Origin: a virus
Lineage: Duplodnaviria; Caudoviricetes
Virus record (IMG/VR): IMGVR_UViG_3300028832_000127
Location: 12,470-76,469 of that record
Length of the DNA stretch: 64,000 nucleotides
Strand: one strand, 5' to 3'
Shown here: in pieces, positions 765 through 54,476 of the stretch
How positions within the stretch are numbered: position 1 is the first letter of the stretch
Layout of the letters: the number at the start of each line of letters is the position of its first letter
Made by a program: the position numbers and the translations under genes
The notes under the pieces: generated by a model
The model's database searches: none
Seen by the model: the letters and a program-made list of their open reading frames with translations, nothing else
What the model was told of the DNA's origin: nothing

Positions 765-816
765 AATTTTTGCGGTTTTTATGGCGGTTTGATGCTATCG
801 CCCCGCCTGTTAATAT

Positions 817-1136: not shown

Positions 1137-1634
1137 TTAATCAAACTCGCCGTGCAAAAATTCACAACTTACCGTCAACGTTGACTCGCTGTAATTTTTA
1201 GGGTACTCCCTAAACCACAGCCAACCGTTGTAAACCTCGCATTCGTGCTGTATCATATTAGCGTAGTCGTAATCTGTCAAGTTAGCCTCCAAAACGCCCT
1301 CCGCCTTATATTTGGGATTTTGGCTCAGGGTGTAAGTAACAGGGCTCAGGGTGCGCTTAGCGTTTTCAAACGCCTCCATATATGCTTTTTCGTTGTCATA
1401 ATACACCGTTTGGGACAGCGTGCCGTTTTCACGTACACAATAGGTGGGGTGGCTGTCGGAGTACCACTCAATTTTGTTTTGCTTTACATAGTCCTCAGAC
1501 ACAACCCTGATGCCGTATGTGCCATAAGGCAGGGGGTAAACTTTTTTGGGGACTTTGCAAGCCTCTTTGTACGTGTTTGCATCAATCTCAAACATTATGT
1601 AAACATAGTTGCAAGTTGCAAAATATTTTTTCAT
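1137..1634 (-). CDS. hypothetical early protein (165 aa)
   Basis: First gene after the left promoter of cassette A. Confidence 0.75.
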   Translation of the reverse strand: MKKYFATCNYVYIMFEIDANTYKEACKVPKKVYPLPYGTYGIRVVSEDYVKQNKIEWYSDSHPTYCVRENGTLSQTVYYDNEKAYMEAFENAKRTLSPVTYTLSQNPKYKAEGVLEANLTDYDYANMIQHECEVYNGWLWFREYPKNYSESTLTVSCEFLHGEFD

Positions 1635-1645: not shown

Positions 1646-2175
1646 TTTTAAAGTTAGTTACTTTGTTTGTTGTTTGTACTTTATTAAACGCAAAATTATT
1701 AAAAATGTTTCATAAAACACAAACTTTTTTCAAACTTTTTTTTAAAATATTTTTCAAATGCCTAAAAATAAGCAATTTACAAAGACATTTTTTTTAAATA
1801 TTTTTTTTGATTGATTGATATTTATATAAATCTTACATCTATATATATATGAATGTTTCAGGGTGCAAATTTTCTTTTGTATGCCTGTTTTTCTTTGATT
1901 TTAGGCATTTATAAAAGATTGTTGATTATTGCATCAATACAGACAAAAAACACCCCTAAAATCGAAAATCTTAAAACATCATTATATATATGTAAGTCAA
2001 AAACAAAGAAAATATAAAATATTTTCAAAATTTTTATCTTTATAAAACACTGATTTTAAACAAGTTGAAAAATATTTTGTAAAAATCTACAAAAATATTT
2101 TTGATTTTATGAAACACTTTTAATAATTTTGCGTTTAAATAAGTACAAACAAAACAAAAACACTAACTTTTAAAA
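1646..2175. repeat. AT-rich bidirectional promoter cassette, copy A
   Basis: Near-identical to 53643-54160, 63737-64000 and (right half) 42713-42975; ~70-bp inverted ends each carrying TTTATGAAAC...TAATTTTGCG. Confidence 0.95.
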
Positions 2176-2191
2176 TTTGGAGGGCTGAAAA

Positions 2192-7802: not shown

Positions 7803-7837
7803 CGCAAAAATAAATCAAAATATTTGATTGTGCAAAC
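7803..7837 (-). promoter_or_regulatory. class II promoter (TTTGCAnAATCA ... TAnnTTTGC)
   Basis: Minus strand gtttgcacaatcaaatattttgatttatttttgcgc; same architecture near 11980-12015, 13690-13725, 21270-21305, 22757-22792 and 44075-44110. Confidence 0.65.
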
Positions 7838-9956: not shown

Positions 9957-10475
9957 TTAACGTCCTGTCGAACCGTAGCCGCCTGAGCCACGATCCGTTG
10001 TTCCGAGTTCTTCAAGTGTGGCGACCTGCTCCCATTCGATGTCCTCGCCGTTGGAGAGGGCGATTTGCACAATTTTGTCGCCGATTTCGTAGTCTGAGCC
10101 ACCGACAACGCGATAATATACGGCTTTGTACTCACCGCGATAGCCTGCATCGCCTACGCCCACACCGTTGGAAAGAACCATATCATCGCCCGACAAAACG
10201 CCGTTTTCGGGATAGTTCAGGCTAATGCCAACGCCGTTTGTCAGCATCAAACCCTTTTTGCAGATAGAACTGCGGGCGAACAGAAGGAGGCTTACCTTTT
10301 TGCCATCCTTGTCGATAGGCGGAAACGCCAAGTGTATGCCTGTGCCGTAGGTAACACAGCCTTTTAGCGGTGTGTTGTCGTGCTTGGACGTTGCCTTTAC
10401 GTCCCATCCGAAGTCGTCGTCGTGCGCCCTTTGGGGCATCGTTGCACCCTCTTCAAGGTAAATTTTTACTTTCAT
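9957..10475 (-). CDS. dut: trimeric dUTPase
   Basis: DFGWDV, ARSS, GDAGYRGE, KIVQ, RGSGGYGSTG motifs. Confidence 0.9.
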   Translation of the reverse strand: MKVKIYLEEGATMPQRAHDDDFGWDVKATSKHDNTPLKGCVTYGTGIHLAFPPIDKDGKKVSLLLFARSSICKKGLMLTNGVGISLNYPENGVLSGDDMVLSNGVGVGDAGYRGEYKAVYYRVVGGSDYEIGDKIVQIALSNGEDIEWEQVATLEELGTTDRGSGGYGSTGR

Positions 10476-10487
10476 ATTTGTAGTTAT

Positions 10488-10991
10488 TTAGAATGGCAGC
10501 GGTTCGCCTGTCTGCTGTTGGTAGGACGGCTGCTGCTGTTGGGCGGAATACGCCGCCTGCGGTTGCTGATAGTAGGGCTGCTGCGGTGGTTGCTGATACG
10601 TCGGCTGTTGGTACGTCGGCTGTTGGTACGCTCCGCCTTGTTGCGGCTGTTGTGCGCCTTGTTGCGGGTGCTTCGTGCAGAGGTCAACCTGCTGCCCGAT
10701 AATCTCAGTTATCTGCCTTTCCGCGCCGCTTTGGTCGTTGTACTTGCGGTAGGTGAGTTTGCCCACCACGTTGAGTTTGTCGCCCTTGTGGATGTAAGGG
10801 ACGACACCGCCCATATTTTTCAATACGATGCGGTGGAAGTCGGTGCGGTCAGGGACTTGCTGTCCGCTCTTGGTCGTGTAGCCTTTCTCGGTGGTGGCGA
10901 GGCTGAACGTGGCTATCGCGCCGCCGTTGTCAAACGTTTTTACGTCGGGCTCGCCACAGACGTTGCCACTCAGGAATACTTGATTAATCAT
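10488..10991 (-). CDS. ssb: single-stranded DNA-binding protein
   Basis: MINQVFLSGN, ATFSLAT, TDFHRIV, KGDKLNVVGKL OB-fold; Q-rich linker; PLPF end. Confidence 0.92.
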   Translation of the reverse strand: MINQVFLSGNVCGEPDVKTFDNGGAIATFSLATTEKGYTTKSGQQVPDRTDFHRIVLKNMGGVVPYIHKGDKLNVVGKLTYRKYNDQSGAERQITEIIGQQVDLCTKHPQQGAQQPQQGGAYQQPTYQQPTYQQPPQQPYYQQPQAAYSAQQQQPSYQQQTGEPLPF

Positions 10992-11949: not shown

Positions 11950-12029
11950 AGTGCAAAAGTTTTTAGTGTTTCTTTACACCGCAAAGATATATCTTTTATC
12001 TTGATTGTGCAAACTTTTTTCAAAATATT

Positions 12030-13666: not shown

Positions 13667-13756
13667 TTTTGGCGTGGTTTGTAATGATGCGCAAAAATAC
13701 ATCAATTTTTATGATTTTGCAAACATTTATCAAAAATTGCAAAAAAAATTATCATA

Positions 13757-18821: not shown

Positions 18822-19508
18822 TTACAAGTTGAGCAACTGCATTTGCGCAATGTCGTCCATGTATCGTGGGTCGTTGCTAAAATTCTGCACGATGTAGTCG
18901 TACCACGCCTTCGCATTGTCCGTCTTTTTCTCGTTGTAAAAGGCGTACAACTTGTTTTTTGCCGTGGCAAAGTCGTACTTAGGCTGTGCAGGGGCAGCGG
19001 TCGGTGCTGATGCAGGGGCGGCTTGTTGTGTCTTTTTGCCGCCGTTGCCGTTGGAGAAGGTAGCGTCAGGGTCGAGTTCGGTTTGCAGACCGAGTGCCAT
19101 GCCGAGCAGATAACGCTGTGCGTAGGTTATCGTTGAGCCGTCGGATTTGATGGCTTCGGGATTGTTTGCGAGCCGAAACGGGTACATAAGCGGCTCGGTG
19201 CGCTCCCCCGTCACGGTGTCCACGAAATTAAGCGCAAATACGCGAAAATTCGAGGCGAGGAGCGGCAGGGTGTGTTCGTTCAAAACCGCCGTGATTTCGT
19301 AATCGAGTTGGTTCTCCGCAAGGATGGGTGTCACCACTTTGAGGATGGCGGTGAGGGAGGCGTAGTTGATTTTTTTGCCGCCACCGACTATTGCGTCGCT
19401 GTCCTTGCCTATCACCCCCACCGCGTTCTTTACGGCGAGGATTTTGGCGGCGAGCGACGGCGTGGTGGTCGTCGCTGCCGCAGGTGCCTGTGTTTCTTTT
19501 GTTGCCAT
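18822..19508 (-). CDS. erf: Erf-family single-strand annealing protein
   Basis: INYASLTAIL, GSTITYAQRYLL..ALGL..DPD. Confidence 0.85.
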   Translation of the reverse strand: MATKETQAPAAATTTTPSLAAKILAVKNAVGVIGKDSDAIVGGGKKINYASLTAILKVVTPILAENQLDYEITAVLNEHTLPLLASNFRVFALNFVDTVTGERTEPLMYPFRLANNPEAIKSDGSTITYAQRYLLGMALGLQTELDPDATFSNGNGGKKTQQAAPASAPTAAPAQPKYDFATAKNKLYAFYNEKKTDNAKAWYDYIVQNFSNDPRYMDDIAQMQLLNL

Positions 19509-20696: not shown

Positions 20697-20868
20697 GGCG
20701 AGGGTGTGGGGATAGGAAACAAAAACGGCGGACATTTCACAACGCCGCCGAAAAAATCGCTTCTTTAATGTAGCAAGAAACACATCTTAACACTTAATAC
20801 TCTAAAAATCTATCCTTCCCTACTGAAAAATGAAAATGAAAAACTTTAACGATGCAAAAATACACAAT

Positions 20869-21255
20869 TTATTTGAATTTGCAAACATATTCCACCTTGT
20901 CTATCTCCATAAGCCAAAACCTAATGAGGTTGTAGAATTGGGGGAAATTGCGGCAAATGACGTATTTGTAGCCTTGTTGCTCCACCGCTGCCTGCCATTC
21001 CTTTTGATGCTCCGACTGAACCCCGTCTTTTGTTTTCATTTCGATACACAGACCGTGGTAGCCTCGGCTCGGGTACAGGAACAACAAGTCGGACACGCCC
21101 GCCACAATGCCCTCTTTGGTCATTATAACCGCCGTTATGCGGTCTCTCTTGCCCCCATTCGGCACGGAAAAAAGGAGTGGTCGCAGGTCTTTGTATTGCA
21201 GCCTGAACCACTCCACACACTTCTGCTGGATATGGCTTTCTAAGTATCTTGGCAT
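20869..21255 (-). CDS. VRR-NUC domain nuclease
   Basis: ESHIQ..VPNGGKR..EGIVAGVSDL..IEMK..QSEHQKEW. Confidence 0.85.
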   Translation of the reverse strand: MPRYLESHIQQKCVEWFRLQYKDLRPLLFSVPNGGKRDRITAVIMTKEGIVAGVSDLLFLYPSRGYHGLCIEMKTKDGVQSEHQKEWQAAVEQQGYKYVICRNFPQFYNLIRFWLMEIDKVEYVCKFK

Positions 21256-21365
21256 AATTCCTTTCTTTACGGCTGCAAAGATATATATTAAATTTTGATT
21301 ATGCAAAACATTTTCAAACTTTTTTTTGCATATTTTTCTTCGACTTAGACCGCCTCATCAGTCAG

Positions 21366-22430
21366 TCAGATTAACTGCGGTATCTTTCCGACCGCCTCGC
21401 GTTTTGACTTGTCCACAACCTTTGCATAAATCATCGTCGTGGCGAGCGACTTATGCCCCAACAGCTTCTGTATCGTCGCAATGTTTACATCAAGTTCTAA
21501 CATCATAACCGCGAATGTGTGCCTTGCGGTGTGGAACGTTACGTGCTTGCCCGTGATGCCCGCCGCCGCCGCCCAATCCGACAGATAGTCATTCGGGCGT
21601 GTCCGCATCTTGAAAACCTTGTCCGCGTCCCCCCTGCGCTCCCCCATGAGTTCCACAGCCTGCGGCGTGATGTCGAGCCATTCGCGCTTCTTTGTCTTGT
21701 GCTGCCTGAACATAATGCGCGTTATCCCGCCCTCGCCCATCTGCACGTTGCCCCACGTCAGGGCGTTGATGTCGATGCAGCGCAGCCCCGTCAGGCAGGA
21801 GAACAGGAATGCCCGCTTGACCACCTCGGCACGGCACGGCGCGGCTGCAAGTCTGCGCACCTCGTCCATAGTCAGGTACTCGCGCTCGGTGTCCGTGAGC
21901 GCAAAGCACTTTACCGCCGCCACCGTTTCAAGCCTCATCTTGCCCTCTTTCACTGCCTTAAAAAGCGCGGTTCGGAGTTTGGCGAAATAGATTGCCTTCG
22001 TGTTCCGTGCAATGGGCAGTGCGCCGATGTAGTCCTTTATGTCCGACAGGGTGTCCGCGCCTATGTTCGCAAGCCTCTTGCCGCCGTACTTCTTCGCGAT
22101 GGTGTTTATCAGTGTGCGCAATATCTCCGTCCTCTTGCCCTGCGTCTTCAATTCCTCTCTGTACGCCCTGAGATAGCCATCGAGCGTGGTCTTGTCGTCC
22201 GTGGACAAGTCATACCGCCGCCGCTCCACCTCAACGGTGCGCTGCGACCTGATTATTTCCGCGAGCCTCATCGTCTCCGCGTTCTTCTGCCTGTCCGCCC
22301 TTGTCCGCTCAGGGACGAGGTAGAGTTTGAGGAACTCATAGCACCGCTCGCCGTCTGCGTAGATGTCGAGATATAAGGAGCGCGAGCCGTCCTTCAACTT
22401 TTTTTCTCTAAGCCTAACCTTGTCTTTCAT
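21366..22430 (-). CDS. int: tyrosine integrase (Bacteroidetes Arm-DNA-binding + SAM + catalytic domains)
   Basis: SLYLDIY..YEFLKLYL, FSCLTGLR, VTFHTARHTFA, LLGH, TMIY. Confidence 0.93.
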   Translation of the reverse strand: MKDKVRLREKKLKDGSRSLYLDIYADGERCYEFLKLYLVPERTRADRQKNAETMRLAEIIRSQRTVEVERRRYDLSTDDKTTLDGYLRAYREELKTQGKRTEILRTLINTIAKKYGGKRLANIGADTLSDIKDYIGALPIARNTKAIYFAKLRTALFKAVKEGKMRLETVAAVKCFALTDTEREYLTMDEVRRLAAAPCRAEVVKRAFLFSCLTGLRCIDINALTWGNVQMGEGGITRIMFRQHKTKKREWLDITPQAVELMGERRGDADKVFKMRTRPNDYLSDWAAAAGITGKHVTFHTARHTFAVMMLELDVNIATIQKLLGHKSLATTMIYAKVVDKSKREAVGKIPQLI

Positions 22431-22471
22431 TTTCTGTTTCAATTTCTGTTTTAAAAATTGTAGATTTTCGG

Positions 22472-22709
22472 GTAACAAAGGAATAACAAAAATTTTAGAA
22501 AAAAAAGGAAAATAGGGGAAAAATAAGGAATAAAGCAAAATTAACTGCAAGAGCCTAAAAAGGCGTTTTATTCCCTTTGTATGTCGTTTTGTTCCCGATT
22601 GTCTGAACGAAACAAAATTTATAATAAAAATTGTGCTTTTATTGCAACTATCTATACATCAACATATTACAACAATCAATTTTTTGTCAGTAACAAGGGG
22701 GAAACAAAA
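22472..22709. other. putative attP region
   Basis: Arm-like repeats GTAACAAAGGAATAACAAAA (22472) and GTAACAAGGGGGAAACAAAA (22690); IHF-like AATCAAttttTTG at 22674; directly upstream of int. Confidence 0.5.
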
Positions 22710-22817
22710 CGGCTTGCGCTATCTAACATTAATTACGACAAAAAAAAATATGAATTTTGTTTGCAAAATCAAAAGTTTTTTTGTATATTTGCGGAAACAA
22801 TTTAACACAAAAGTTAT

Positions 22818-23518: not shown

Positions 23519-23604
23519 GGGAACGTTATTCGAGTTCGAGTAAACGAGACCCGCATTCGCACCGTTATTCGTGTTACCCCCAAACAACAGACCGCGAAGG
23601 GACG
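23519..23604 (-). ncRNA. DGR template repeat (TR), 3'-truncated
   Basis: 86-nt direct repeat of VR; rich in AAC/AAT codons; 6 of 7 mismatches fall at TR adenines. Confidence 0.9.
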
Positions 23605-23700: not shown

Positions 23701-24966
23701 TTACGCGACAAAGCAGAGACGCGAGCCGACAGCCGGATTCGTATACGTGGGAACGTGATGCGAATTCGAGGAAACGAGACCCGCAGTCGCACCGTTAAGC
23801 GTGTTACCCCCAAACAACAGACCGCGAAGGGACGTACTATCTATATTAACGTAATGATAGTCGTGATAGTATGTGTCCGCGCTGCCACCGACTTTTTTTG
23901 CCGTGATGTCGCCGTACTGCCCAAAGTGGATTTCCTTGACGTAACCGTTGCTTCTTGCTTCGTTGCCGACGGAGCGGTAGTTTGAATAAGAAGTTGAGGA
24001 AAACAGCGAGGGACGGCTGCAAGCATAGACCGCGCTTGTGCCGCTTGTCCCCGACACTACGTTGACAAGTACGCCGTCCGTCCACTTCCAAATGTGTCCA
24101 AACGGGTTTTCTATGCCACGGTAACGAGGCACGGACACAGTTACAAGGGTGCTGTTGTTTGCGTCCTTGACGGCGAGGGATTTTACGCCTGTGCCGTTGC
24201 CGAGTTCGTCGGTGTAGCCGCAGGGGACGATGGGATAACGACCGTTGTAATTATTCCACGATGTGTCGTTCCAATCTGTTACGCCCGCGCCGAGACCGCC
24301 TTGGTGGTAGCCGTTTGCGTCCAAATTAGCGTTAAATGCCGCCTGTGAATTGAACGTGCAATACTCGACCGCGAAGAGCCAAAACAGCCACTTGTGCGCG
24401 TCGTACACATTGCAGTTCCACCGCGTGTCGCCGTTATTTCGGTTGCGTGCGTAGGTGCGAAAGTTGGTAAGGCTGATGCTTGTTGCGGGCATACCGAGTT
24501 GGCTGCGGTACGTGCCGTCCCACGCGGATTGATTGTTTCCGCCACGGTAGTCTGCGGTGGTGTTGACGATGCTGCAAAGTTTGTTTGTGGAGCGTTGGAG
24601 CGATGCTTCGTATGCGCCGACGTAGTAGCGCGGAATGTGGGTGAAGCCCGACCGAGGTGTCGCCGAGAGCCAAACGCGGTTGATTGTGTTCGATGCGCGT
24701 GTGCCGTCGAACTTTATCCAATGTTCTGGGACGCGCACCATCACCTGTCCGAGCGAGCCGTCCCTTGTCGCCGAAGTCCAGTCGTCGTAGGGAAGCTCCA
24801 TAACCTCGTTGCCGAGGTCGTCGAGGATAACGCCTTTCATCTCCGACTGCACTGGTAGCAATCGGTGCGCGTCCTTGTCGCCGATGCGGTGCATCACGTC
24901 GTTCACCGTGTCGAAGTCGATGCCGTAGGGGGCGAGTTTTTCATATATTTTACGTCCTGTTATCAT
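23701..24966 (-). CDS. DGR target protein (C-type lectin/FGE-sulfatase-like tail adhesin)
   Basis: YVGAYEA, GIENPFGHIWKWTDG, C-terminal LFGG..G..AG..S..VGSRLCF. Confidence 0.85.
   Translation of the reverse strand: MITGRKIYEKLAPYGIDFDTVNDVMHRIGDKDAHRLLPVQSEMKGVILDDLGNEVMELPYDDWTSATRDGSLGQVMVRVPEHWIKFDGTRASNTINRVWLSATPRSGFTHIPRYYVGAYEASLQRSTNKLCSIVNTTADYRGGNNQSAWDGTYRSQLGMPATSISLTNFRTYARNRNNGDTRWNCNVYDAHKWLFWLFAVEYCTFNSQAAFNANLDANGYHQGGLGAGVTDWNDTSWNNYNGRYPIVPCGYTDELGNGTGVKSLAVKDANNSTLVTVSVPRYRGIENPFGHIWKWTDGVLVNVVSGTSGTSAVYACSRPSLFSSTSYSNYRSVGNEARSNGYVKEIHFGQYGDITAKKVGGSADTYYHDYHYVNIDSTSLRGLLFGGNTLNGATAGLVSSNSHHVPTYTNPAVGSRLCFVA
23749..23834 (-). repeat. DGR variable repeat (part alignable to TR)
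   Basis: Encodes GGNTLNGATAGLVSSNSHHVP versus TR GGNTNNGANAGLVYSNSNNVP. Confidence 0.9.
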
Positions 24967-36026: not shown

Positions 36027-36230
36027 TTTTCGTGGTTTTATTGGTTAACGTCTGCGCAAAGTTAAGGGAAGAAATGCGGCGTAAAAAGTTAGGATATTTG
36101 CCTACTTGAAAAATGTAAACAAATTAACTTTTTTTAACTCAAAATGTTTTTCGATTTATGAAACATTTTATATATTTGCATCGTTAAACAAATAGAAACA
36201 AAAAAACACTAACACTTAATATATAGGCTT

Positions 36231-36488: not shown

Positions 36489-36836
36489 ATGAACACGAAC
36501 AGAACAAAATTTTGCCGCAATTTGACGGCAGCCGAGCGCAAAGAGTTAAAAAAGGTCGGCGAGATTGACGGCATCGACAACACCGCGCCGTTGCTGTCTT
36601 GGTGTCATCAGAAAAAGACAAAAGACCGCGATTTTGACAACGCAATATACTTCTTTGAGGTATGGGCAAACTGCCTTATGTTGGATTACGTTGCCACGGC
36701 GGGCGGCATCGTGATTGTCATGCAGACGGCGGGCGGCGTGGAGAGGCTGTACCACTTTGAGGAGAGCGAATACGCCGAGGCTATCGACTTTTACAACAAG
36801 ATGCAGGTGGCTCTCGAAAAAAACAACAATTTTTAA
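36489..36836 (+). CDS. hypothetical early protein (115 aa)
   Basis: ORF in rightward cluster. Confidence 0.7.
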   Translation: MNTNRTKFCRNLTAAERKELKKVGEIDGIDNTAPLLSWCHQKKTKDRDFDNAIYFFEVWANCLMLDYVATAGGIVIVMQTAGGVERLYHFEESEYAEAIDFYNKMQVALEKNNNF

Positions 36837-36850
36837 CAAAGGAGGCAATT

Positions 36851-36994
36851 ATGCACGAAGTACCCCCAAACTATTTGGTAGAGGTTGAGCCGTTTGGCAC
36901 TCTACTTCGCAAAGAGGCTGCGCCTAACGTACACAGATGTACGGGCTGCGTCGGACTAATAAACGCTCCCGTAGCCTCCGCCCACTTGATGTAG
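36851..36994 (+). pseudogene. truncated duplicate of the 43169-43390 gene
   Basis: 36854-36969 matches 43193-43308 with 4 mismatches in 116 nt; same RBS context. Confidence 0.8.
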
Positions 36995-37170
36995 CGAGTG
37001 GTGCAGGCGAGGTTTGGCACTACCCACATATATACGCAGACAATTTCCTTGAAAAATGGGGCGCAGAGGTCGAGCATCACAATGCTGTCCTTGCCTGTCG
37101 CCGAGTGGAACAGCAAAATTTTGTCTGTCTGTTCCGCAATCCTTTTGATGCAGTCTGTCGCTTTACTCAT
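36970..37170 (-). pseudogene. N-terminal fragment of a PAPS-reductase-like protein
   Basis: ILLFHSATGKDSIVMLDL..EIVCVYM..YIKWAE, then runs into the reverse strand of the duplicated gene. Confidence 0.7.
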
Positions 37171-37351
37171 GTTATAATGTGTATTGATTTCGGTGCAAAG
37201 ATAGGGGGCGGGGACGGATTGTAAAAGTTGCTTTGATTGTGCAATTAATTAACATCTTTTAAGTATTTTATTTTGGTAGATTGTAACATTTATAATAATT
37301 TTGCGTTATAGAAAATAGAAAACAAAGTTACTAACTTAAACACTTAAAGAA

Positions 37352-42521: not shown

Positions 42522-42712
42522 TTGATTTTAGGTTTAAGTTGGTTTTATTAGGTTGATAATGTTGCTTGCAAGCGGTGGCAAAAGAACAGCATAAAAGAGG
42601 GGCGCAAAAGTCGGAGCGCGAGGGGCGGCGTTTAAGTTTAAGGCAAACACAAAGTTACAGCGAAAAAAAATTTATTGTTGGTTTTTCTTTTGTTTTTGGC
42701 GATGTTTTAAGG

Positions 42713-42975
42713 TTGTTGATTATTGCATCAATACAGACAAAAAACACCCCTAAAATCGAAAATCTTAAAACATCATTATATATATATGTAAGTCAGAAAC
42801 AAAGAAAATACAAAATATTTTCAAAATTTTTATCTTTATAAAACACTGATTTTAAACAAGTTGAAAAATATTTTGTAAAAACCTACAAAAATATTTTTGA
42901 TTTTATGAAACATTTTTAATAATTTTGCGTTTAAATAAGTACAAACAACAAACAAAGTAACTAACTTTTAAAACA
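42713..42975 (+). repeat. promoter cassette copy B (right half)
   Basis: Near-identical to the right half of copies A and C. Confidence 0.95.
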
Positions 42976-42984: not shown

Positions 42985-43152
42985 ATGAAAACAGACAACA
43001 CAATGCCGAGATATACGGCGCAAGAGATTGCAGACGATTTTTTCACTGATGGCGTATTGTGGGACGTGTGGGGTCATTCGTCCTGCATTGAGGGCGACAA
43101 ACTCAAAGTAACAACCCCCGACGGTGTGTCTTATTACGACATCAACAAGTAA
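42985..43152 (+). CDS. small early protein (55 aa), not in the ORF track
   Basis: MKTDNTMPRYTAQEIADDFF..SCIEGDKLKVTTPDG; paralog at 63043-63192. Confidence 0.7.
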   Translation: MKTDNTMPRYTAQEIADDFFTDGVLWDVWGHSSCIEGDKLKVTTPDGVSYYDINK

Positions 43153-43168
43153 AACAAAGGAGGCAATT

Positions 43169-43390
43169 ATGTACGAAGAACCACAAAACTATCACGAAGT
43201 ACCACCAAACTATTTGGTAGAGGTTGAGCCGTTTGGCACTCTACTTTGCAAAGAGGCTGCGCCTAACGTACACAGATGTACGGGCTGCGTCGGACTTACA
43301 AACGCTCCTATTTGCCACATACTGAATTGCCGCGCAACGGCACGAAAAGACGGCAAAAATGTAATTTTAGTGCCGTACAAAGAGGATTAA
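43169..43390 (+). CDS. small Cys-rich protein (73 aa)
   Basis: CTGC..C..LNC..RKDGKNVI. Confidence 0.7.
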   Translation: MYEEPQNYHEVPPNYLVEVEPFGTLLCKEAAPNVHRCTGCVGLTNAPICHILNCRATARKDGKNVILVPYKED

Positions 43391-43427
43391 CAACGGGGCG
43401 GCAACGCCCCACAAAAACAAATAGAAA

Positions 43428-44030
43428 ATGAAAGCGAAACATTTAGTACGTGGTAAAGACACCGTGACAGGCGCGTGGCGGGTCGGCTATCTTGTAATGA
43501 TAGACGGCAAACCGCACATCATAGAAAACCGCGACATCAGCGAGGTGGGACACCACTTCCAACAAGATGGCGACAGACCAACGTGGGTTGCCCCCAAGAC
43601 GGTGGGCAGCATTGCACCGCGCCAAGACACCGACGGCAAAAACGTTTTCGAGGGGGACGTGGTGGAGTACACCGACGAAATTTATTCATTCCGCATCCGT
43701 GCCTTCGTCGAGTACGGCGAGTTCAGGGCGGACAATAGCGACGGCGAGTACGCGGGCGCGAGGGTGTACGGCTGGCACGTTTCGCTGATTTCGGCGACAC
43801 CGCCCGAATGGGACAAGGAGGCAGAATTACCGCAATGGTTGAGGGTGCAGAGTTTGCTCGAAATTCCCGACTTCAAGGTCGTAAGCAACGAGTGGGATAT
43901 GTCCGTTAATGCCCCCGTGGGCGGTATGAGCCAAAACACGGCAGAAGAACTGATTGAAAGGCTCGGCAAGGTACAGCGAACAATGCAGAAAACAGCAGAG
44001 AACGCGCTCCGCTATATCAACAACTATTAA
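43428..44030 (+). CDS. YopX family protein
   Basis: RGKD..GAWRVGYL..TVGS..DGKNVFEGDVV. Confidence 0.75.
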   Translation: MKAKHLVRGKDTVTGAWRVGYLVMIDGKPHIIENRDISEVGHHFQQDGDRPTWVAPKTVGSIAPRQDTDGKNVFEGDVVEYTDEIYSFRIRAFVEYGEFRADNSDGEYAGARVYGWHVSLISATPPEWDKEAELPQWLRVQSLLEIPDFKVVSNEWDMSVNAPVGGMSQNTAEELIERLGKVQRTMQKTAENALRYINNY

Positions 44031-44126
44031 AAAGGCTGCAATTAACATTTTTTTTACAAAAATAATTTGATTTTTGTTTTGCGAAATCAAATTATTTGCT
44101 TAAATTTGCAGCATAAAACAAGACAC

Positions 44127-44268
44127 GATGGCTTAGTTTAAGCGTCCCAAGACGCTATATCCGACGAGTAGCCTACGGAGCGGTGCGGAGACACCGAGCA
44201 AGAGGCGAAAGGGAGACGAAAAAACGCCGCCGAAAGGGTGGACGATGCTGTGCGAGCCAGCAGCCATC
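44127..44268 (+). ncRNA. candidate structured RNA (sRNA or 5' leader)
   Basis: Closing stem GATGGCT/AGCCATC with four internal hairpins, starting just after promoter TAAATTTG at 44101. Confidence 0.5.
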
Positions 44269-44290
44269 ACTAACAAAAAAAACAGACGCT

Positions 44291-44482
44291 ATGAGAGTTC
44301 CCAAGCATAAGACCTGTGCCGCCTGTCTGTGGTACGCAGCCGCCAAGCAGACCGCAAACGGCGTTATTGACGGCGAGTTTTTCTGTCACCACGCCGCGAA
44401 CAGCCACAAAAGCAAGGGGTGGGGCGGTCGGGTGCATAAGAACGACCGAGCGTGTGAGAATATGGAAAAAACTAAAAACTAA
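44291..44482 (+). CDS. small Cys/His-rich protein (63 aa)
   Basis: TCAACLW..FCHH..ACE. Confidence 0.6.
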   Translation: MRVPKHKTCAACLWYAAAKQTANGVIDGEFFCHHAANSHKSKGWGGRVHKNDRACENMEKTKN

Positions 44483-44488
44483 AATGCT

Positions 44489-44806
44489 ATGAAAAAGATG
44501 TTTTATCAGGTAACGGTGGCAGCCCCTACGCTGCCCGACGGTTACGACGAGGAGACAAAGACGGGACAGATGCTTATTGCCAACTATGACAATTCCGCGT
44601 CCGTCTATGCAAACCTGAAAGCGTTTTTTAATGTGGCGATACCTGAGCCGTCCAAAGACACCGCTTTTAGCATCGTAAGGCAAATAGTAAACATTGCGGA
44701 CAAGGCGTTCAAACCCGATTTTGTCGGCTGCGACGTGGACATTCCGCTTTGTGGCAGCCAATACAAGCGAATACACTTCAAATGCACACCCTTACAAGAC
44801 TACTAA
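44489..44806 (+). CDS. hypothetical protein (105 aa)
   Basis: ORF in rightward cluster. Confidence 0.65.
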   Translation: MKKMFYQVTVAAPTLPDGYDEETKTGQMLIANYDNSASVYANLKAFFNVAIPEPSKDTAFSIVRQIVNIADKAFKPDFVGCDVDIPLCGSQYKRIHFKCTPLQDY

Positions 44807-44819
44807 ACGCTATGAAAAA

Positions 44820-45209
44820 ATGAAACCCAAACTATACAGAAAATTCCGAGCCGTTGAGCATAAAACCTACAAATTCGTGTACGGTGCTTATGTCGAGTAC
44901 ATCGACCAAGACAGACCCGACGAAATCATAGAGGACAACGGAACGGTTCACAAAGTGGCAAGTTGGACGGTCGGCGAGTTTACGGGTTTTGTTGACGGTT
45001 CAAGTCCGCGCCGTGAAATATACGACGGCGACATCTTGCAAGAGCCTGACCACTCCGACACCTACGTTGTCTTTTGGGACAAGGGCGAGGGGCAGTGGGC
45101 GGTCAAATTCCGCGATACCACAATGCCGCTGGCAAGGTTGCGCCGCGCTTATGGCTTCGTCGCCAAGGTAATCAGTACGACAACAGCAGACATAACCACA
45201 GAAAAATGA
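44820..45209 (+). CDS. YopX family protein
   Basis: KFRA..FVYG..TVGEFTG..EIYDGDIL. Confidence 0.75.
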   Translation: MKPKLYRKFRAVEHKTYKFVYGAYVEYIDQDRPDEIIEDNGTVHKVASWTVGEFTGFVDGSSPRREIYDGDILQEPDHSDTYVVFWDKGEGQWAVKFRDTTMPLARLRRAYGFVAKVISTTTADITTEK

Positions 45210-45379
45210 CACAAGACCACCCCGACATAATCGCCGCGCTTAACGAGACGGTGGCAAGGCTGACAGCGGAAAACGCCGCCAAGGACGCGCAAATACAAGC
45301 CTTGCAGGACAAACTCAACCGCGCAAACGACGCTCTCACGCAGATGGTGGAGAGCAGGAAAGAATATTACGACGTATAA
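45206..45379 (+). CDS. small coiled-coil protein (57 aa)
   Basis: ATGA overlap with the previous gene. Confidence 0.6.
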   Translation: MTQDHPDIIAALNETVARLTAENAAKDAQIQALQDKLNRANDALTQMVESRKEYYDV

Positions 45380-45390
45380 ACATTAAGACT

Positions 45391-45681
45391 ATGGCAACAA
45401 AAAGACCCCTATTCTCCAACGGCACGGAGTTTATGTTTTGGAGTTCCCGAAACTGCGAACACTGCCACAAAGCCGTGCAATACAACGAGGGCAAAAACTA
45501 TATGCCCAAGTATCGGTGCGCGATACAGCGCGACATCGAATTTGCGGCGATAGACGACGGCTGCGGCAACGATAGGGCGTACAATGCCGCAAGGTCGCCA
45601 CGCTGTCCCTACTTTGTAGAAAAGGGCAGCGTAAAGCGGAAACGAGCAAAAAAGAACGACACACAGCCGACGCTGTGGTAA
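45391..45681 (+). CDS. Cys-rich hypothetical protein (96 aa)
   Basis: FSNGTEFMFW..NCEHC..C..CP. Confidence 0.65.
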   Translation: MATKRPLFSNGTEFMFWSSRNCEHCHKAVQYNEGKNYMPKYRCAIQRDIEFAAIDDGCGNDRAYNAARSPRCPYFVEKGSVKRKRAKKNDTQPTLW

Positions 45682-45895
45682 AAATATTGACACTATGGAA
45701 AGAAAAGCAACTAACGAGTGGGAGTTTCGCCGAATGTGTGCAAACATAGACAGCGAGGACGGCAAGCAAACATAATAGTACATTTTAGTTTTTTTGGCGG
45801 AGGCGTTGTAAAACGCGCTCCGTCTTTTTTTTGCCCCGAAACAGCCTTATTTTTGCGCCAAAAGTACGACAACCTATCAAACTCTCAATACGACA

Positions 45896-48800
45896 ATGGC
45901 AGCGGAAAATTTAGGCGAATTAGAGGCGGGCGTGAAACTCACCCCCGACACCTCGGATTTTGATAAAGCCTTCGGCGATACCATATCAAAGGCAAAGGCG
46001 CAACTCGACAGCCTCAGCGGTCAGACCCTCACGCAATTAACTAACAATTTCAAGGGGTTTGCGAACTCCGTGACGGGCGGTCTCGACGCTATCAACGCGA
46101 GCATCGCCAAGGTGCAGAGCATCGCATCCCTCGGAATATTAGGCGGCGGCTTGGCGGGTCTTGTGCATCAAGTCTTCCAAACTCGCTCCTACTTTCAGGA
46201 TGCAGCCTCATCAATGAAAACGTTTCTCGGCGATGCGGAGAAAGGCGCGAAGTTCACCAAGGAATTGCAGGACTATGCGTTCTACAATATGTACGAATTT
46301 CAAGACCTCGTGGGCGCGTCGCAGCAACTCATAGCCTACGGCACAAAGGACAGCAAGGAGATAATCGGCGTTATCGACCAACTCTCCAACATCGCCACAG
46401 GCACGGGCGCGTCGCTCAACGGAATGATAGACATATACAACAAGATAAAGGCGCAGGGCAAGGCTAACGGAATAGTGTTAGACCAATTGGCGAGCCGTGG
46501 TCTTTTGGTGAAACAGACACTTAAAGACATGGGCGAGACGGTCAACGGCAACACCGTAACGTTTGAGCAATTCCAAAAGGTTTTGAAGCACGTCACGGAC
46601 GAGGGCGGCATGTTCCACAACCTTATGAAGGAGCAGTTGAACAACCTGTCGGCGAGCGCGGCGCAGTTGTCGGACGTGATGACCAATATGTGGAACGAGA
46701 TAGGCGAACAGGCAGAGCCGTATATGAAGGAGGCGATAGATTTGGCGGCTATGGTTGTCGAGAATTACAAGGAGATTGCGGCGGTGCTGTTCGACATAGC
46801 CAAAGCGTATGCAATCTACAAGGTGGCGGCATCCGCTATTGAGTGGAACAAGAACACGATAGCGGCGGAGCAGTTCGAGATGGAGAAGGCAGCGTTAGAG
46901 GGTGCGACGGAGGCGTTAGAGGGTGCGACGGAAGCAACTGAGGACAACGCGGAGGCAGACATCAAGGCGCGTGTCGCAAAGGGACAACTGACAGAGGCGC
47001 AGGCAAAGGAACTTATAGCGATACAGCAAGGATTGGAGAAACGCAAGCAGGAGTTGATGTTAGTGCAGCGTCAGGCGACGGCGGAGGCGACGGCGGCGGA
47101 AAAGGAGATTGCAGCCCTGAAAGCCAAGATAGCGATGCAGGAGCGGTCGCTAAAAATCACGGGTGACTTGTCGAGGGCGTCAGAAATCAACGCTATGAAG
47201 ACGCAGGTGGAGACGTTGGAGAAAGGGCGGCTTGCGGCGGCTGAACGTGCGGAGAACGCGCAAAAACAGATTTCCGCAATCAATACGGCGAGGGATGCGG
47301 CGGCGCAGGTAGCGGATGCCAACGCCACAAGCCTATTGACAAGGGCAAAGTTGGCGGCTGGGGCAGCAATCAAAGGCATAGGCAGCAGCATAATGTCGAT
47401 GATAAACCCCACGGCACTTGCGACGGCGGCAGTCGGTTTCCTTGTTACCAAACTGATTGAGATGGCGATGGCGGACACCACGTTGGAAAAGGAAATGAAG
47501 AAACTCCGCGACATTGAGAGCGAGTATTTCAACAACGTAAGGAAAGAGCAGGCTACGCTTGATGAGGCTTACGGCAAGACGCTTAACCTGAAAGAGGGAA
47601 CAGAGGAATACAACAAGGCTAAGACTGATTTGATTAATCAGTATAGCGAGTATCTGTCGGGTCTGTCAGCCGAGGAGACGAAGTTAATGTCCATAAAAGA
47701 CCTTTACGAAAAAATAACGGTTGCGATTATGGACAAGTACAAGGCGCAGGCGTTGGAAAAGGCAAGGGACACATTCGGACAGACGGTCGGCGACGCCAAG
47801 ACAGAGGCGATAAAAACGATGTTTACCGAGCTTGACAAGGGAACGGATGACGTTCAAAAGGCGGCTATCAAGCAACAAGCGGACAAGATGTTCGACGACT
47901 ACATTGCAGCCACAAAGAAAATAAAGGAAATACAAAGGGAGAACGCTATGATACAATTTAGCGACCCCGACGCATATAGTGAAAACTTACAAAAAATGAG
48001 GGTGATTGTTGACGAGTACAAAAATACTTATCAGAATTACTTTGACTATATTAAAAAATTCAAATTAGGCAATAAATTTGCCTTTGACTACGAAATAAGC
48101 AAAGCCTTTTTTGGAATATTTGAATCTGACAAAAATGCCGCTACGGACTTTATCGACACGGAGACTGCGGCAATGAAAGCCTTGTCAGATGCCGAGGCTA
48201 TGTTTGCGAACAACTGGAACAAGGCGACAGGGGGCGGCACTACCCCCGAAGTCCCCCCCGCAGCCCCAAGGATAAAAAAAGCAAAGGAAGAGGACAAAAA
48301 ATTCATTGAGGCTTATGCAAAACTCGTTGAGGAGCGAAACAAAAAAATAGCCGACATTGAAAAGGAATACGGCACTTCCGATGAAGTCAAACAGTACAAA
48401 ATCCAACAAATTGAAGTCCAATATGATTGGAAAATCAAGGATTTGGCTGCGGGCAACGGTCTGACTGAAAAACAAGAGCAGGCACTTGTAGAGAAATATG
48501 AGGCTGCCGCAAATTCTGAACTTGACATTGCAAAGGAACAGTACCTCAAAATCAAAGATGAGATTGCCAAATATCAGAAACTACAATCAAACATTCAACT
48601 CACCGACAAAAACGCAAATCAGGCAGAACTGGACAAGAGGATGGCGACATTCAACGCCTACACTAAGAAAATAGCCAGCCTAACGGCGGAAATGGAGGGC
48701 TATGAAGCTGTCATCAACAAGTCTTTTGATAAGACTGATTACGCAAAAAAAGCGTCAGCGTACACAAAGTTTGCCGAGGATTATTCCGCCAGCCTCATCG

Positions 48801-50740
48801 CTGTTAAGGCGAAAGAGGTGGAAATCAAAAAGAAAATAGCAGACCTTGACAATCAAGCAGCCAAAACATCCGACACGGATGCATTGGCTGACATCAACAG
48901 GCAGAAGGCAAACGCGCAGACAGAACTGGACAACTTCAAGATAGAGCAGGAAACCAAACGGCAGATTTTGGTGGAGGGGTTTGACGGCACGGCGACCGAC
49001 GTTACCGACATCATAAACAAAATGATGGAGCAGACGTCAAATCTGACATTTGACCAGTTGCAAAAGGAAATTGTCAAGGTAACGGGGAAGCTCCGACAAC
49101 TGCAAGCACGGCAGCAAATGGGTGAGGATGTGTCGCAGGAGATAGCCGAAACGTCGGCACAATTAAAGATTTTGGAGGGTGCGAGCGAGGCAGCCAAGAA
49201 AGCCATGCAGATTGAAAAAGGCGACGACCCGATAGACTATTGGAAAGACAGCAAAAAAGCAGTCGGACAACTTGCCAACGCCTTTAAGGATTTGGGCAGT
49301 GCGATAGGCGGTTCTACCGAGGAAGCACTCAACACGGCAAGCATGGTGCTTACAACCACCGTTTCCCTTGTTGACAACATCGTAACTTTCACCACGACGA
49401 GCATATCCGCCATCAAGACGGCGGAAACGGCAGGTGTGGCGGCGGTAAAGGCGGTGGAGGCGGCATCGGTCATTTTGGCGATAATTTCCGCCGTCATCCA
49501 GTTGGGACAGGCGATAGCCAGCCTTTTCAATAAAAAAGACCCTATCGACGAACTTAAAGACAGCCTCCACGACTTCAACCTCGAATTAGAGGAAACAAAA
49601 CGCCTTGCCGCAAACGAAGCAAGTTTCAAGCCCTTTGAAACAATATTCGGAGACGATGCATGGGGAGCAATGACCAACAACATACGCATAGGAGCGGAGG
49701 CGTTGGAAACATACGAAAAGACGCAGCAAGACATAATTAAGAACGCCCAGACTATGACGGGGCAGATGAAACAGGGCGTAGGTGGAGCAATCGGCTCGGC
49801 TATTCTCACGGGCGGTTGGTGGTCGGGAGGAAATCACAGTGCGGTTACCGCAGCAGGACAATACGACAATGTGGACGATACCGTGGCGAACATGAAAGTC
49901 AAGGTGCAGCACAAGACGTGGATTAGGAACGAGAAATCATCAACTTTAAAAGACTTTGTTCCGTCCCTTTTCGACGACCAAGGCAAACTTGACAAGGACG
50001 CGCTGCATAAGTTTGTCGAAAGCAACAACGATGCTTTTCAAAAGTTGAGCCAAGACAACCAAGACTACCTCAAAAAAATGGACGAAAGTTGGCAGGAGTA
50101 CCAAGAGGCTGTCGCGGCGGTTAAGGACACCTTCTCCGAGTTCTTCGGGGATTTGGGAAGTCAGATACAGGATGTGTGGACAAATGCGTTCCGCAGCGGT
50201 GAGGACGGACTGGCGGACTTTGAAAAGTCGTGGGACAGCGCAATCGAGAATATGATACAGTCGATGGCATATTCCAAGACGCTGGGCAAGGTTATGAGCG
50301 ACATGGAGAACGACTTAGACGAGGCTGGCTTTTTTGACGACCCAAACGCAAACATGGATAAAGCCGTGGGCATTATGGAAGAATACGAGCAGAAATCGCT
50401 TGCCACAAAAGAGGCTTACGACCAAATCCTTGAAACTTGGCGCAAAAAAGGCTACTTCAAAGAGGAAGAAGCACAACGTCAAGCCGTGTCGGGCGGCATA
50501 GCCAACGTAACGCAAGACACCGCCGAGGAAATGAATGGTCGGCTCACGCAGATACAAAGCCACACGTTCTCAATCAACGAGGGCATGAAACAAATGGTAA
50601 CAATGCAGACCACGCAACTGGCGATACTGCAAGGAATACACACCGACACGGCACGACTGGCGACGATACAGGGCGAAATCACCGCTGTAAGGGCGGCGGT
50701 CGCAGACATCCAAATCAAGGGCATCAAGTTGAAGTCGTAA
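45896..50740 (+). CDS. tape measure protein (1614 aa)
   Basis: Tape_meas-type N-region (FLGDAEKG..LIAYG..LSNIATG), long Ala-rich helices, QDTAEEMNGRLTQIQ end; own promoter at ~45850. Confidence 0.92.
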   Translation: MAAENLGELEAGVKLTPDTSDFDKAFGDTISKAKAQLDSLSGQTLTQLTNNFKGFANSVTGGLDAINASIAKVQSIASLGILGGGLAGLVHQVFQTRSYFQDAASSMKTFLGDAEKGAKFTKELQDYAFYNMYEFQDLVGASQQLIAYGTKDSKEIIGVIDQLSNIATGTGASLNGMIDIYNKIKAQGKANGIVLDQLASRGLLVKQTLKDMGETVNGNTVTFEQFQKVLKHVTDEGGMFHNLMKEQLNNLSASAAQLSDVMTNMWNEIGEQAEPYMKEAIDLAAMVVENYKEIAAVLFDIAKAYAIYKVAASAIEWNKNTIAAEQFEMEKAALEGATEALEGATEATEDNAEADIKARVAKGQLTEAQAKELIAIQQGLEKRKQELMLVQRQATAEATAAEKEIAALKAKIAMQERSLKITGDLSRASEINAMKTQVETLEKGRLAAAERAENAQKQISAINTARDAAAQVADANATSLLTRAKLAAGAAIKGIGSSIMSMINPTALATAAVGFLVTKLIEMAMADTTLEKEMKKLRDIESEYFNNVRKEQATLDEAYGKTLNLKEGTEEYNKAKTDLINQYSEYLSGLSAEETKLMSIKDLYEKITVAIMDKYKAQALEKARDTFGQTVGDAKTEAIKTMFTELDKGTDDVQKAAIKQQADKMFDDYIAATKKIKEIQRENAMIQFSDPDAYSENLQKMRVIVDEYKNTYQNYFDYIKKFKLGNKFAFDYEISKAFFGIFESDKNAATDFIDTETAAMKALSDAEAMFANNWNKATGGGTTPEVPPAAPRIKKAKEEDKKFIEAYAKLVEERNKKIADIEKEYGTSDEVKQYKIQQIEVQYDWKIKDLAAGNGLTEKQEQALVEKYEAAANSELDIAKEQYLKIKDEIAKYQKLQSNIQLTDKNANQAELDKRMATFNAYTKKIASLTAEMEGYEAVINKSFDKTDYAKKASAYTKFAEDYSASLIAVKAKEVEIKKKIADLDNQAAKTSDTDALADINRQKANAQTELDNFKIEQETKRQILVEGFDGTATDVTDIINKMMEQTSNLTFDQLQKEIVKVTGKLRQLQARQQMGEDVSQEIAETSAQLKILEGASEAAKKAMQIEKGDDPIDYWKDSKKAVGQLANAFKDLGSAIGGSTEEALNTASMVLTTTVSLVDNIVTFTTTSISAIKTAETAGVAAVKAVEAASVILAIISAVIQLGQAIASLFNKKDPIDELKDSLHDFNLELEETKRLAANEASFKPFETIFGDDAWGAMTNNIRIGAEALETYEKTQQDIIKNAQTMTGQMKQGVGGAIGSAILTGGWWSGGNHSAVTAAGQYDNVDDTVANMKVKVQHKTWIRNEKSSTLKDFVPSLFDDQGKLDKDALHKFVESNNDAFQKLSQDNQDYLKKMDESWQEYQEAVAAVKDTFSEFFGDLGSQIQDVWTNAFRSGEDGLADFEKSWDSAIENMIQSMAYSKTLGKVMSDMENDLDEAGFFDDPNANMDKAVGIMEEYEQKSLATKEAYDQILETWRKKGYFKEEEAQRQAVSGGIANVTQDTAEEMNGRLTQIQSHTFSINEGMKQMVTMQTTQLAILQGIHTDTARLATIQGEITAVRAAVADIQIKGIKLKS

Positions 50741-51214: not shown

Positions 51215-51482
51215 TTGTTCGTTGATTATTGTTAATGTTTTCGTTTATCCAAGTTGCAGCAAAGACCTTGCCCCGCCCCGACGATTAACACATTTTAACT
51301 AATTTTTCTTTGTGCTTTATGAAACATTTTGTAATTTTGTGTCGTTAAATAGAATAGAACAGCCAAAATTGAGCAACGCAAAAAAGAGTATGATAATTTT
51401 ATGCAACGAGAGCCTGACGCGCAGTTTCCTGAGTGCGAAAAGGCTGAATTACCATTTTAATGACAATCTAAAAAACAAAATT

Positions 51483-52295
51483 ATGTTTAGAGAGATAATC
51501 GCGGCACGTTTCGCCGCAGAAAAAGTTTCATTCCGCACCGCCGCAATCGGCGCGGGTGTGGATAAGACGTGCTTGTTCCTTTACCTACAAGGCAAACCCG
51601 CAATCGGTCTCAAATCCGTGGAGGCTCTCAACAAGTTTTACGGCATCAACGTCGTAAACGCGGAGACGGGCGAGTTCTTCTACCACGGCTACGACATCCG
51701 CGAGGCTGTCAAACGCGGAATGACCGAACAGCACGTCCTCGTCAAGGACATCTGCGAAGCCGCCGACATCAAGCAGCCAAACGTAACGGAATATTTGCAG
51801 GGGCGTTCTTATGTTCGACCCGTGAAAGCCGAATTAATGCTCGCACGGCTCGGTCTGACCGTGGCGTATGTTCCGACCCCCGACCGCATCCCACGTCTGA
51901 AAACGGGGAAACGCCTCACGTTCAAGATAGGTGCGGACATCAGGGCGGCGATTGAGAAAAAGGAAATGTCACCGTTCAAGTTTGCCAAAGAAAACGGTTT
52001 CAATAACTTTGCAACGTTCCTTGACACGGGGCGGCTCATATCGCCCGACCGCGTGAAAAAGATGCTTGCTCTGTTGGACATCACCATCACCGACGGCGAG
52101 ACCGACTACGGCACGGACATCAGGGCGGCAATACAGGCGGCGCGGAAAAAGCGCAAGGTGACGTACAGAGAGTTAAGCACCGTTGCAGGGTGCAGCGGTC
52201 TTATGGTCACGTACTACCTGACGGGGCGGAACGAGACGAGCATAAAAAAGGTGGACGCAATGTTCACCCATTTGGGGCTGTCCCTCAAATACTGA
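51483..52295 (+). CDS. protein with four tandem XRE-like HTH domains
   Basis: Four ~60-aa units ((D/F)IR..I..YL.G..(L/Y)G(L/I)); follows a class I promoter at 51316-51339. Confidence 0.75.
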   Translation: MFREIIAARFAAEKVSFRTAAIGAGVDKTCLFLYLQGKPAIGLKSVEALNKFYGINVVNAETGEFFYHGYDIREAVKRGMTEQHVLVKDICEAADIKQPNVTEYLQGRSYVRPVKAELMLARLGLTVAYVPTPDRIPRLKTGKRLTFKIGADIRAAIEKKEMSPFKFAKENGFNNFATFLDTGRLISPDRVKKMLALLDITITDGETDYGTDIRAAIQAARKKRKVTYRELSTVAGCSGLMVTYYLTGRNETSIKKVDAMFTHLGLSLKY

Positions 52296-52355
52296 CAGCC
52301 ACGGCATAAAGAAAACGGCGGTGGGACGCGAGCCTCATCGCCGTTTTTGTGTGGT

Positions 52356-54160: not shown

Positions 54161-54177
54161 ACTAAAAACATAAGAAA

Positions 54178-54426: not shown

Positions 54427-54476
54427 TACTAACAGGCGGCGCGATAACATCAAACCGCCACAAAAACGCGAAGAAA

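Follow-up and report, generated by a model that had tools for sequence, protein, structure and literature searches.

The window analysed here, a stretch of 64,000 nucleotides, comprises bases 12470-76469 of the 76,469-bp viral record IMGVR_UViG_3300028832_000127, with 12.5 kb of the record lying upstream of it; positions below are those of the window unless given as genome positions, which count along the record. The record encodes a tyrosine integrase (21366-22550), portal (61230-62654), major head, tape-measure and tail proteins, together with TerS, TerL (genome 5535-7658), a ParB-like protein, a helicase, a VRR-NUC nuclease and an ERF-family single-strand annealing protein (18822-19508, minus strand; PF04404, E = 2e-13). 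The combination of an integrase with portal, head and tail genes and with TerS, TerL and ERF therefore marks a temperate siphovirus-like phage. No tRNAs were found in the record, and Rfam gave no match to known RNA families at the gathering threshold or at E <= 1. TTTG, or TAnnTTTG, is the promoter consensus type of Bacteroidota and differs from that of sigma-70, and the promoters of this phage match it; the phage is a temperate, gut-type phage of Bacteroidota and belongs to a poorly studied lineage.

An element with a GC content of 19%, compared with 49% for the genome, recurs along this record. Its copies were located by repeat finding, BLAST and alignment, and a nhmmer profile of its module added weaker ones. 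Copy A is a full head-to-head dimer at 1646-2175, and copy B, also a full dimer, lies at 53643-54167, is 95% identical to A by BLAST and carries promoters at 53686-53718 (minus strand) and 54092-54123 (plus strand). The left half of copy C (264 bp, 63738-64000; 95-97% identical, promoter at 63783-63815, minus strand) is truncated by the end of the contig as well as by the window, and its right end (131 bp) was found at genome 1-131, corresponding to element positions 401-529. Copy D (42681-42973, plus strand; promoter at 42896-42927) is a right-module monomer that includes the central dyad and corresponds to element positions 242-530 at 93% identity. The four copies of the preliminary description, all in one orientation, were thus recovered near the coordinates first given for them, and internal orientation was identical in 9 of the 9 copies seen. 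Upstream of the window we identified the right part of copy E (genome 3466-3797), whose left half is decayed and promoter-less (nhmmer match at genome 3531-3352, minus strand, E = 7e-6). Four minimal cores of ~110 bp each, consisting of promoter plus leader, were also present, at genome 11663-11775, at 36095-36218 (plus strand; 36141-36219 in the annotation of promoter and leader), at 37272-37343 (plus strand, with the variant spacer TTGTAACATTT) and at 51309-51367 (plus strand). In copy-A coordinates the left edge of E falls at ~1843 and that of D at ~1887-1917, and because these edges are unequal, some junctions arose by illegitimate rather than homologous events. Both ends of the record fall within copy C, of which ~136 bp are missing; this repeat is therefore where the assembly broke, and a circular or permuted genome is probable. 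The label "linear, 66% complete" (CheckV completeness, 66%) probably reflects this repeat-induced break.

Alignment of the left half with the reverse complement of the right half gave 66% identity and a score of 237.5, compared with 103 +/- 8 for shuffles, and repeat finding placed inverted arms at 1662-1823 and 1999-2160 in copy A. A full copy is therefore a head-to-head dimer of a module of ~265 bp, in agreement with its first description as a degenerate dimer, and copies D and E are essentially monomers. In copy A, the left leader (1646-1690, minus strand) is predicted to be unstructured and ends at the start codon of a 165-aa gene (1137-1634, minus strand). It is preceded by the left class-1 promoter (1691-1723, minus strand), with TTTG at 1723-1720, the spacer TGTTTTATGAAACATTTTTAA and TAATTTTG at 1698-1691. 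Further inward lie a AAAATATTTT box (1744-1753), which is conserved in the related copy M1b described below, and a weaker box, AAATATTT (1796-1803). The centre is a nested dyad of 67 bp (1897-1963) with a common axis near 1930, composed of GATTTTAGG (1897-1905), TTGAT-N6-ATCAA (1922-1937) and CCTAAAATC (1955-1963); these blocks pair in the predicted fold, which is AT-rich and without a U tract. The right arm contains a distal AAAATATTTT box (2016-2025), a 35-bp palindrome holding two AAAATATTTT boxes and adjoining the -33 box (2068-2102), the right class-1 promoter (2100-2131, plus strand; TTTG, spacer ATTTTATGAAACACTTTTAA and TAATTTTG) and a leader running to the ATG at 2192 (2132-2191, plus strand). 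The AAAATATTTT boxes are self-complementary, and 17 of the 21 exact occurrences in the genome fall within full, half or split copies of the element (18 when the minimal module at genome 11748 is added). The central dyad was found in all 7 copies that cover the region, namely A, B, D, E and the copies M1a, M1b and M2 from other contigs, and the right-arm palindrome was unchanged in every copy, M1b included. Any role of the ~110-bp centre of the dimer is putative.

Neither an intrinsic-terminator-like site within any copy nor an Rfam match or conserved ORF within the element was identified. The central small ORFs were rejected as coding sequences: A and B differ by a 1-nt indel that puts these ORFs out of frame, so that they are not conserved. 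The hairpin at 1882-1908 (ATGCCT...AGGCAT) was rejected as an essential part, being replaced in E and M1a. The IHF-like site first noted in each module is real in A (2043-2055) and D (42839-42851), but its supposed conservation fails, as it is lost in B and in the divergent M1b, and it was dropped as a conserved feature.

An AT-rich sequence with repeated boxes and dyads would also suit a replication origin, partition or packaging site present in several copies, and the helicase gene in one arm and the ParB-like gene in the record point the same way. We consider this highly doubtful. Three to five such sites would be unusual in one 76-kb genome, the promoters and leaders are the best-conserved parts, and no initiator gene is linked to the element.

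Both ends of the element were originally described as carrying outward-facing promoters, and we confirmed that both contain exact matches to TTTG-N20/21-TAATTTTG, for which activity is predicted from the consensus. The genome holds 12 promoters of this class 1, with the common spacer (T)TTTATGAAACATTTT and the -7 box TAATTTTG followed by GCGTT. Common to these 12 is a leader of ~55 nt (GTACAAACAACAAACAAAGTAACTAAC...) that reaches the start codon, often as ATGAAAAC, and is predicted to be unstructured (z = +0.3 to +1.3). The activity, strength and timing of the promoters are predictions from consensus matches. One of the minimal class-1 promoters (51309-51367) heads a gene for a 308-aa protein with two or three HTH regions (51369-52295; HTH_3 at residues 255-307), and the gene is followed by a strong terminator with a 15-bp stem (52311-52348). 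The protein is a candidate regulator of the class-1 promoter family.

We searched for the element in several collections. The INPHARED phage collection gave no element match, exact-pattern scans of IMG/VR gave none, and scans of GTDB genomes returned nothing but one chance match in an AT-rich Mycoplasma. Among 165 relative loci, gathered via the portal, TerL and a cargo protein and searched with BLAST and the nhmmer profile, none carried the element, and only weak promoter-plus-leader matches with a ATGAAACAT-type spacer were identified, twice in L017 and in L012. Promoter and leader thus recur in these relatives without the long cassette, which therefore arose later than the promoter class. 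In L011, the nearest relative by portal sequence (82% identity), the corresponding place is taken by an ordinary divergent promoter region of 170 bp. A metagenome scan identified two contigs from another project, L091 and L092, that hold the element at 74-93% identity, so that carriers in the collections searched amount to three contigs, this record included. L091 (12.6 kb) has two full copies, M1a (704-1223) and M1b (10215-10774), and L092 (1 kb) has one, M2.

These contigs bear on whether the copies and their scrambled order are real or result from a chimera joined at repeats, a reading invited by the contig breaking inside copy C and by the CheckV value. L091, an independent assembly, reproduces TerL, arm genes, a full element and then the 49-aa gene that precedes portal here, and its second copy has the same neighbours as copy A. 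Further, copies differ from one another by 3-8% and the left arms from the right arms by ~20-27%, a divergence that short reads can separate, and an assembly artefact is extremely improbable.

M1b is the positional orthologue of copy A, with a 169-aa gene on its left that corresponds to the 165-aa gene here (71% amino-acid identity) and 67-, 78- and 79-aa genes on its right. It is 74-80% identical to A, and the flanking coding DNA is 75-79% identical. Within this background no base has changed in M1b in the palindrome with the -33 region (36 of 36 bases), in the promoter (31 of 31) or in the distal box block (27 of 27), and the same holds for the left box, the left promoter and the three dyad blocks; the least conserved stretches are 1853-1869 and 1970-1987, where identity falls to 39%. 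Conservation is thus patchy: constraint acts on parts of the long upstream region, which were not merely copied recently. The high identity among paralogues could nonetheless come partly from recent duplication rather than from selection.

This pattern raises the question of a regulatory hub only, in which arrays of binding sites (AAAATATTTT boxes, the ATGAAACAT spacer and the dyad) would let a phage regulator switch these operons jointly, in the manner of P1 C1 operators or of cluster A mycobacteriophage stoperators, and recombination would be incidental. The boxes, palindrome, spacer and dyad blocks are the best-conserved parts of M1b, the ATGAAACAT-type spacer and leader recur in the more distant L012 and L017, and the 308-aa multi-HTH protein is itself under a class-1 promoter. 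However, the upstream arrays are missing from the four minimal promoters, so that membership of the promoter class does not depend on such arrays, and the boxes fit a generic A/T pattern of the UP-element kind; we take the box and palindrome pattern to resemble the E. coli UP-element consensus. The replaced flanks and mosaic site patterns reported below would also be left unexplained. A hub alone is rather unlikely, and it is compatible with, not exclusive of, the explanation that we prefer, in which the element is a promoter cassette and a recombination linker at once.

Every arm had been described as driving a run of short unknown ORFs. This held for most of the cargo, as Pfam gave nothing above its curated cut-off for 26 of the 29 arm proteins tested and almost all arm proteins lacked PHROG or Pfam matches, but the C-right, C-left and D arms are exceptions: the first encodes a 398-aa helicase, the second continues into the portal and head genes, and the third lies upstream of the tape-measure block. 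Early expression and a host-takeover or anti-defence function of the cargo, as first proposed, found no support; nearly all cargo genes are orphans, and two of the arms lead toward structural genes. The domains DUF3873 and DUF3846 were identified in arms, and Pfam gives DUF3873 a B. thetaiotaomicron gene description. The 165-aa flank protein of copy A had no relative in IMG/VR. We also observed a 181-aa E-arm protein (genome 4790-5335) that is 91% identical to its L091 counterpart and otherwise has homologues (42-53%) only in five viral contigs that have no other relationship to this phage (L175-L179); three of the five are jumbo-sized (204-376 kb) and the others measure 23-31 kb. This distribution indicates horizontal spread of arm cargo.

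The GC hairpin GGCGGnGCGAyArCATCAAACCGCC was identified within the A-left arm (783-807, minus strand), after the first gene of the B-right arm (54435-54459, plus strand), after the first gene of the C-left arm (63211-63235, minus strand) and in L092 (925-949). It is always in sense orientation, stands between unrelated genes after the first or second arm gene and has no U tract, and it represents a second "linker" or RNA element. Arms also share duplicated gene fragments, a further sign of recombination, with 36835-36969 and 43153-43308 being 97% identical. Further arm duplications were observed between 43080-43160 and 63029-63109 and between 36970-37170 and genome 9249-10220; the 55-aa and 49-aa genes are paralogues, and one duplicated fragment copies the N-terminus of a PAPS-reductase-like gene.

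Flanking genes differ between carriers of the element. On M1a, M1b and M2, homologues in this genome were lacking for 5 of the 6 arm-proximal genes; sequence homology ends at the junction of leader and ATG and restarts a few bases ahead of the ATG of the next conserved gene. The check proposed in the preliminary description, that the element would be kept while its flanking genes vary, was thus borne out by L091 and L092. In this genome the order is C-left arm, C, a 3.3-kb island with the helicase (genome 142-3465), E and E arm, so that the direct copies C and E bracket the island. The island is absent in L091, where the C-left flank (99% identical) is joined through the single copy M1a to the distal E-arm genes (92.7%), and M1a itself has a left half like those of A, B and C and a centre of the E-type variant. 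As the comparison of C-E with M1a is unpolarised, the difference in the island may be an insertion or a deletion. Further, a 152-aa gene has changed sides: it takes second place in the right arm of A and in the left arm of M1b, with outward transcription both times.

Exchange is also visible within the copies. Four-gamete violations were identified in 6 of 10, 6 of 10 and 90 of 171 informative site pairs, two leader variants are spread over both left and right arms, and the AAA variant GAAAATATG is common only to the two L091 copies, which are themselves just 74% alike. Such widely conflicting site patterns among copies point to gene conversion. Copy A is closer to its paralogues B and C (93-95% by alignment and BLAST) than to its positional orthologue M1b, which indicates concerted evolution or mosaic exchange. 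With its sequence kept while flanks are replaced, with the island indel and with mosaic sites, the element behaves as a recombination seam, as do the promoter-early stem-loop (PeSL) mobile regulatory cassettes of T4-type myoviruses (Arbiol et al. 2010, PMC2839356; Comeau et al. 2014, PMC4122927). Its description as a recombination platform for swapping gene islands is upheld by the same evidence. Variation next to the element is by itself not proof of causation, as phage accessory regions vary anyway.

The same description had called the element mobile, and in the sense of transposition this was not upheld. A MITE-like non-autonomous transposon with long terminal inverted repeats could look similar, given 530 bp of AT-rich DNA in multiple copies with inverted arms of ~160-200 bp. 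However, neither target-site duplications nor an empty site were found, homology between copies reaches the start codons on both sides of every copy with no insertion scar, the inner ends of the half copies differ, and no transposase was identified among the annotated proteins. The transposon reading is scarcely credible.

Swapping by a site-specific cassette system of the integron or shufflon kind is very unlikely as well. Here the dyad and the CCTAAAAT-type repeats would be the target of a recombinase such as the tyrosine integrase at 21366-22550, and inverted arms around a 6-bp spacer do have the layout of a recombinase core site, present wherever the dyad region is covered. Junctions, however, vary (~1843, ~1887-1917 and leader/ATG) instead of falling at one short core site as in integrons and shufflons; the M1a crossover lies to the left of the dyad, and flank replacements break at start codons, ~230 bp away from it. 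In addition, the dyads are all in direct orientation, so that recombination between them would delete essential genes.

We analyzed the gene order around TerL and portal in relatives. In 125 of the 125 relative loci that contain both, the two genes were adjacent on the same strand, and the gap between them had a median of 108 bp. In this genome ~7 kb lies between them, occupied by the E arm, the island, copy C and the C-left arm, and in L091 they are 2.9 kb apart, with the interval built likewise of element-led arms. A TerL-portal island in the relative L065 was considered as an analogue and rejected, being mostly co-directional. No other consensus promoter was identified between C and the portal gene, so that the head operon may now be expressed from the left promoter of C. 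In the relatives seen, the tape-measure gene and the gene for the 1151-aa tail protein lie on the portal strand. In this genome the tape-measure block (42985-50740) alone is reversed, lying on the other strand from portal and the gene for the 1151-aa tail protein. A class-1 module flanks it on either side, D (plus strand) and B-left (minus strand), and the two face in opposite directions. Inversion between these modules is a candidate origin of the reversal and is consistent with the data; such an inversion would swap the gene sets of the two promoters and leave neither orphaned.

We conclude with moderate confidence that the element combines the roles of a co-regulated promoter cassette and of a linker for homologous recombination, in a PeSL-like manner. 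Each module comprises, from its end inward, an unstructured A/C-rich leader of ~55 nt ending at the start codon of the first gene, a canonical Bacteroidota housekeeping-sigma promoter with TTTG at -33, TAATTTTG at -7 and the unusually conserved spacer TTTATGAAACATTTT, UP-element-like AAAATATTTT boxes that may bind protein, with the 35-bp palindrome in the right arm, and more AT-rich DNA. The 67-bp nested dyad, a probable protein-binding site, forms the unique centre of the dimer. In the proposed mechanism the unit, probably a strong cassette, would fire two divergent operons of mostly orphan small genes, and the full and half copies together with the four 110-bp cores would place ~12 transcription units under one promoter type. 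Scattered stretches of 110-530 bp that are 80-97% identical and face either way along the genome, the copies offer substrates to homologous or "relaxed" recombination. The ERF protein of the phage, which presumably falls in the same functional class of single-strand annealing proteins as the Rad52-like annealases, is a candidate enzyme that could catalyze recombination between copies. Rad52-like annealases are known to drive recombination between diverged repeats in temperate phages (PMC3945230). The outcomes would be gene conversion among copies and insertion, deletion or replacement of the attached gene sets, with inversion probable. Because both ends would fire outward and the copies supply both orientations, any deletion, insertion or inversion would leave each block with a promoter facing into it.

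A stronger version of this reading would make the dimer a dedicated device for genome plasticity, in which the dyad and boxes recruit a phage protein that couples regulation to recombination; we regard this as distinctly unlikely. The recruited protein could be the multi-HTH regulator or the ERF/VRR-NUC pair. If this version were true, accessory islands could sit inside obligatory late operons, as at the split TerL-portal junction, and whole structural blocks could flip, as in the reversed tape-measure block.

Among known systems, PeSLs are ~100 bp long and unidirectional, with a terminator stem-loop adjoining the promoter, and recombination between neighbouring copies gives mini-circles (PMC2839356, PMC4122927). 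Shared with the element are a repeated host-type promoter with an AT-rich upstream region ahead of orphan genes in variable regions, differences between close relatives that consist of indels and replacements with the repeats at their edges (here against L091 and L092) and the supply of expression to whatever is attached. In contrast, the element lacks the terminator stem-loop, GC hairpins being found only elsewhere in the arms after first genes, and at 530 bp it is five times longer and a bidirectional dimer; only the four minimal copies are ~110 bp. It also uses the Bacteroidota -33/-7 promoter, belongs to a temperate siphovirus-like phage and splits the TerL-portal junction. The initial analogy to longer, bidirectional PeSLs therefore stands for the promoter, the AT-rich upstream region and the flank variation, but not for the terminator or the short unidirectional format.

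Other systems share single traits with the element. Lambdoid phage morons and the linker sequences at module boundaries, part of classical modular theory and reportedly described by Hendrix, Juhala and co-workers about 2000-2001, likewise combine accessory genes that stand inside conserved operons under a promoter of their own with short conserved junction sequences that favour exchange. The promoters and terminators of different morons are unrelated, and insertion is probably illegitimate, whereas here one long sequence facing both ways is reused for all islands. The C1 operators of P1 and the stoperators of cluster A mycobacteriophages similarly put many transcription units across a genome under one conserved control sequence. 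However, those are sites of 13-17 bp with a known repressor, compared with 265-530 bp of conserved sequence and a putative binding protein here. Bacteroides invertons, in which short inverted repeats surround one promoter that flips, share the host phylum, the promoter consensus and inverted repeats around regulatory DNA. In contrast, the promoters of the element lie within long inverted arms, both facing outward, and the nine copies seen, all with one internal orientation, give no indication that the centre flips.

The element represents a sequence-defined example outside the T4 group of a reused promoter that is also a seam for the exchange of gene blocks, and it offers one explanation for the scattered, partly flipped morphogenesis genes of this phage. 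The 110-bp core with its leader, the 265-bp monomer and the 530-bp bidirectional unit are parts worth testing as expression tools in Bacteroides. Such repeats also break short-read assemblies of these phages, as in the contig here, which ends inside a copy.

Elsewhere in the record, a DGR-like TR/VR pair (23519-23604 and 23749-23834) is 92% identical, with differences mostly at TR adenines, and sits at the 3' end of a tail protein gene (23701-24966). A PF00078 search identified no reverse transcriptase in the record, and a link to the element was rejected, as the pair is unrelated to it. Further, a second promoter family with the conserved -33 context TTTGCAnAATCAAA was identified at 7805-7836, 11982-12013, 13692-13723, 20855-20885 and 21276-21307 (all minus strand), at 22760-22791 and 44078-44108 (plus strand) and at genome 11231-11262 (minus strand). 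A box similar to TTTGCAnAATCAAA precedes the portal gene in L011. Promoters of this second family precede the operons for TerS/TerL, amidase, methyltransferase, nuclease and tape measure, and the family may represent a middle or late promoter class.
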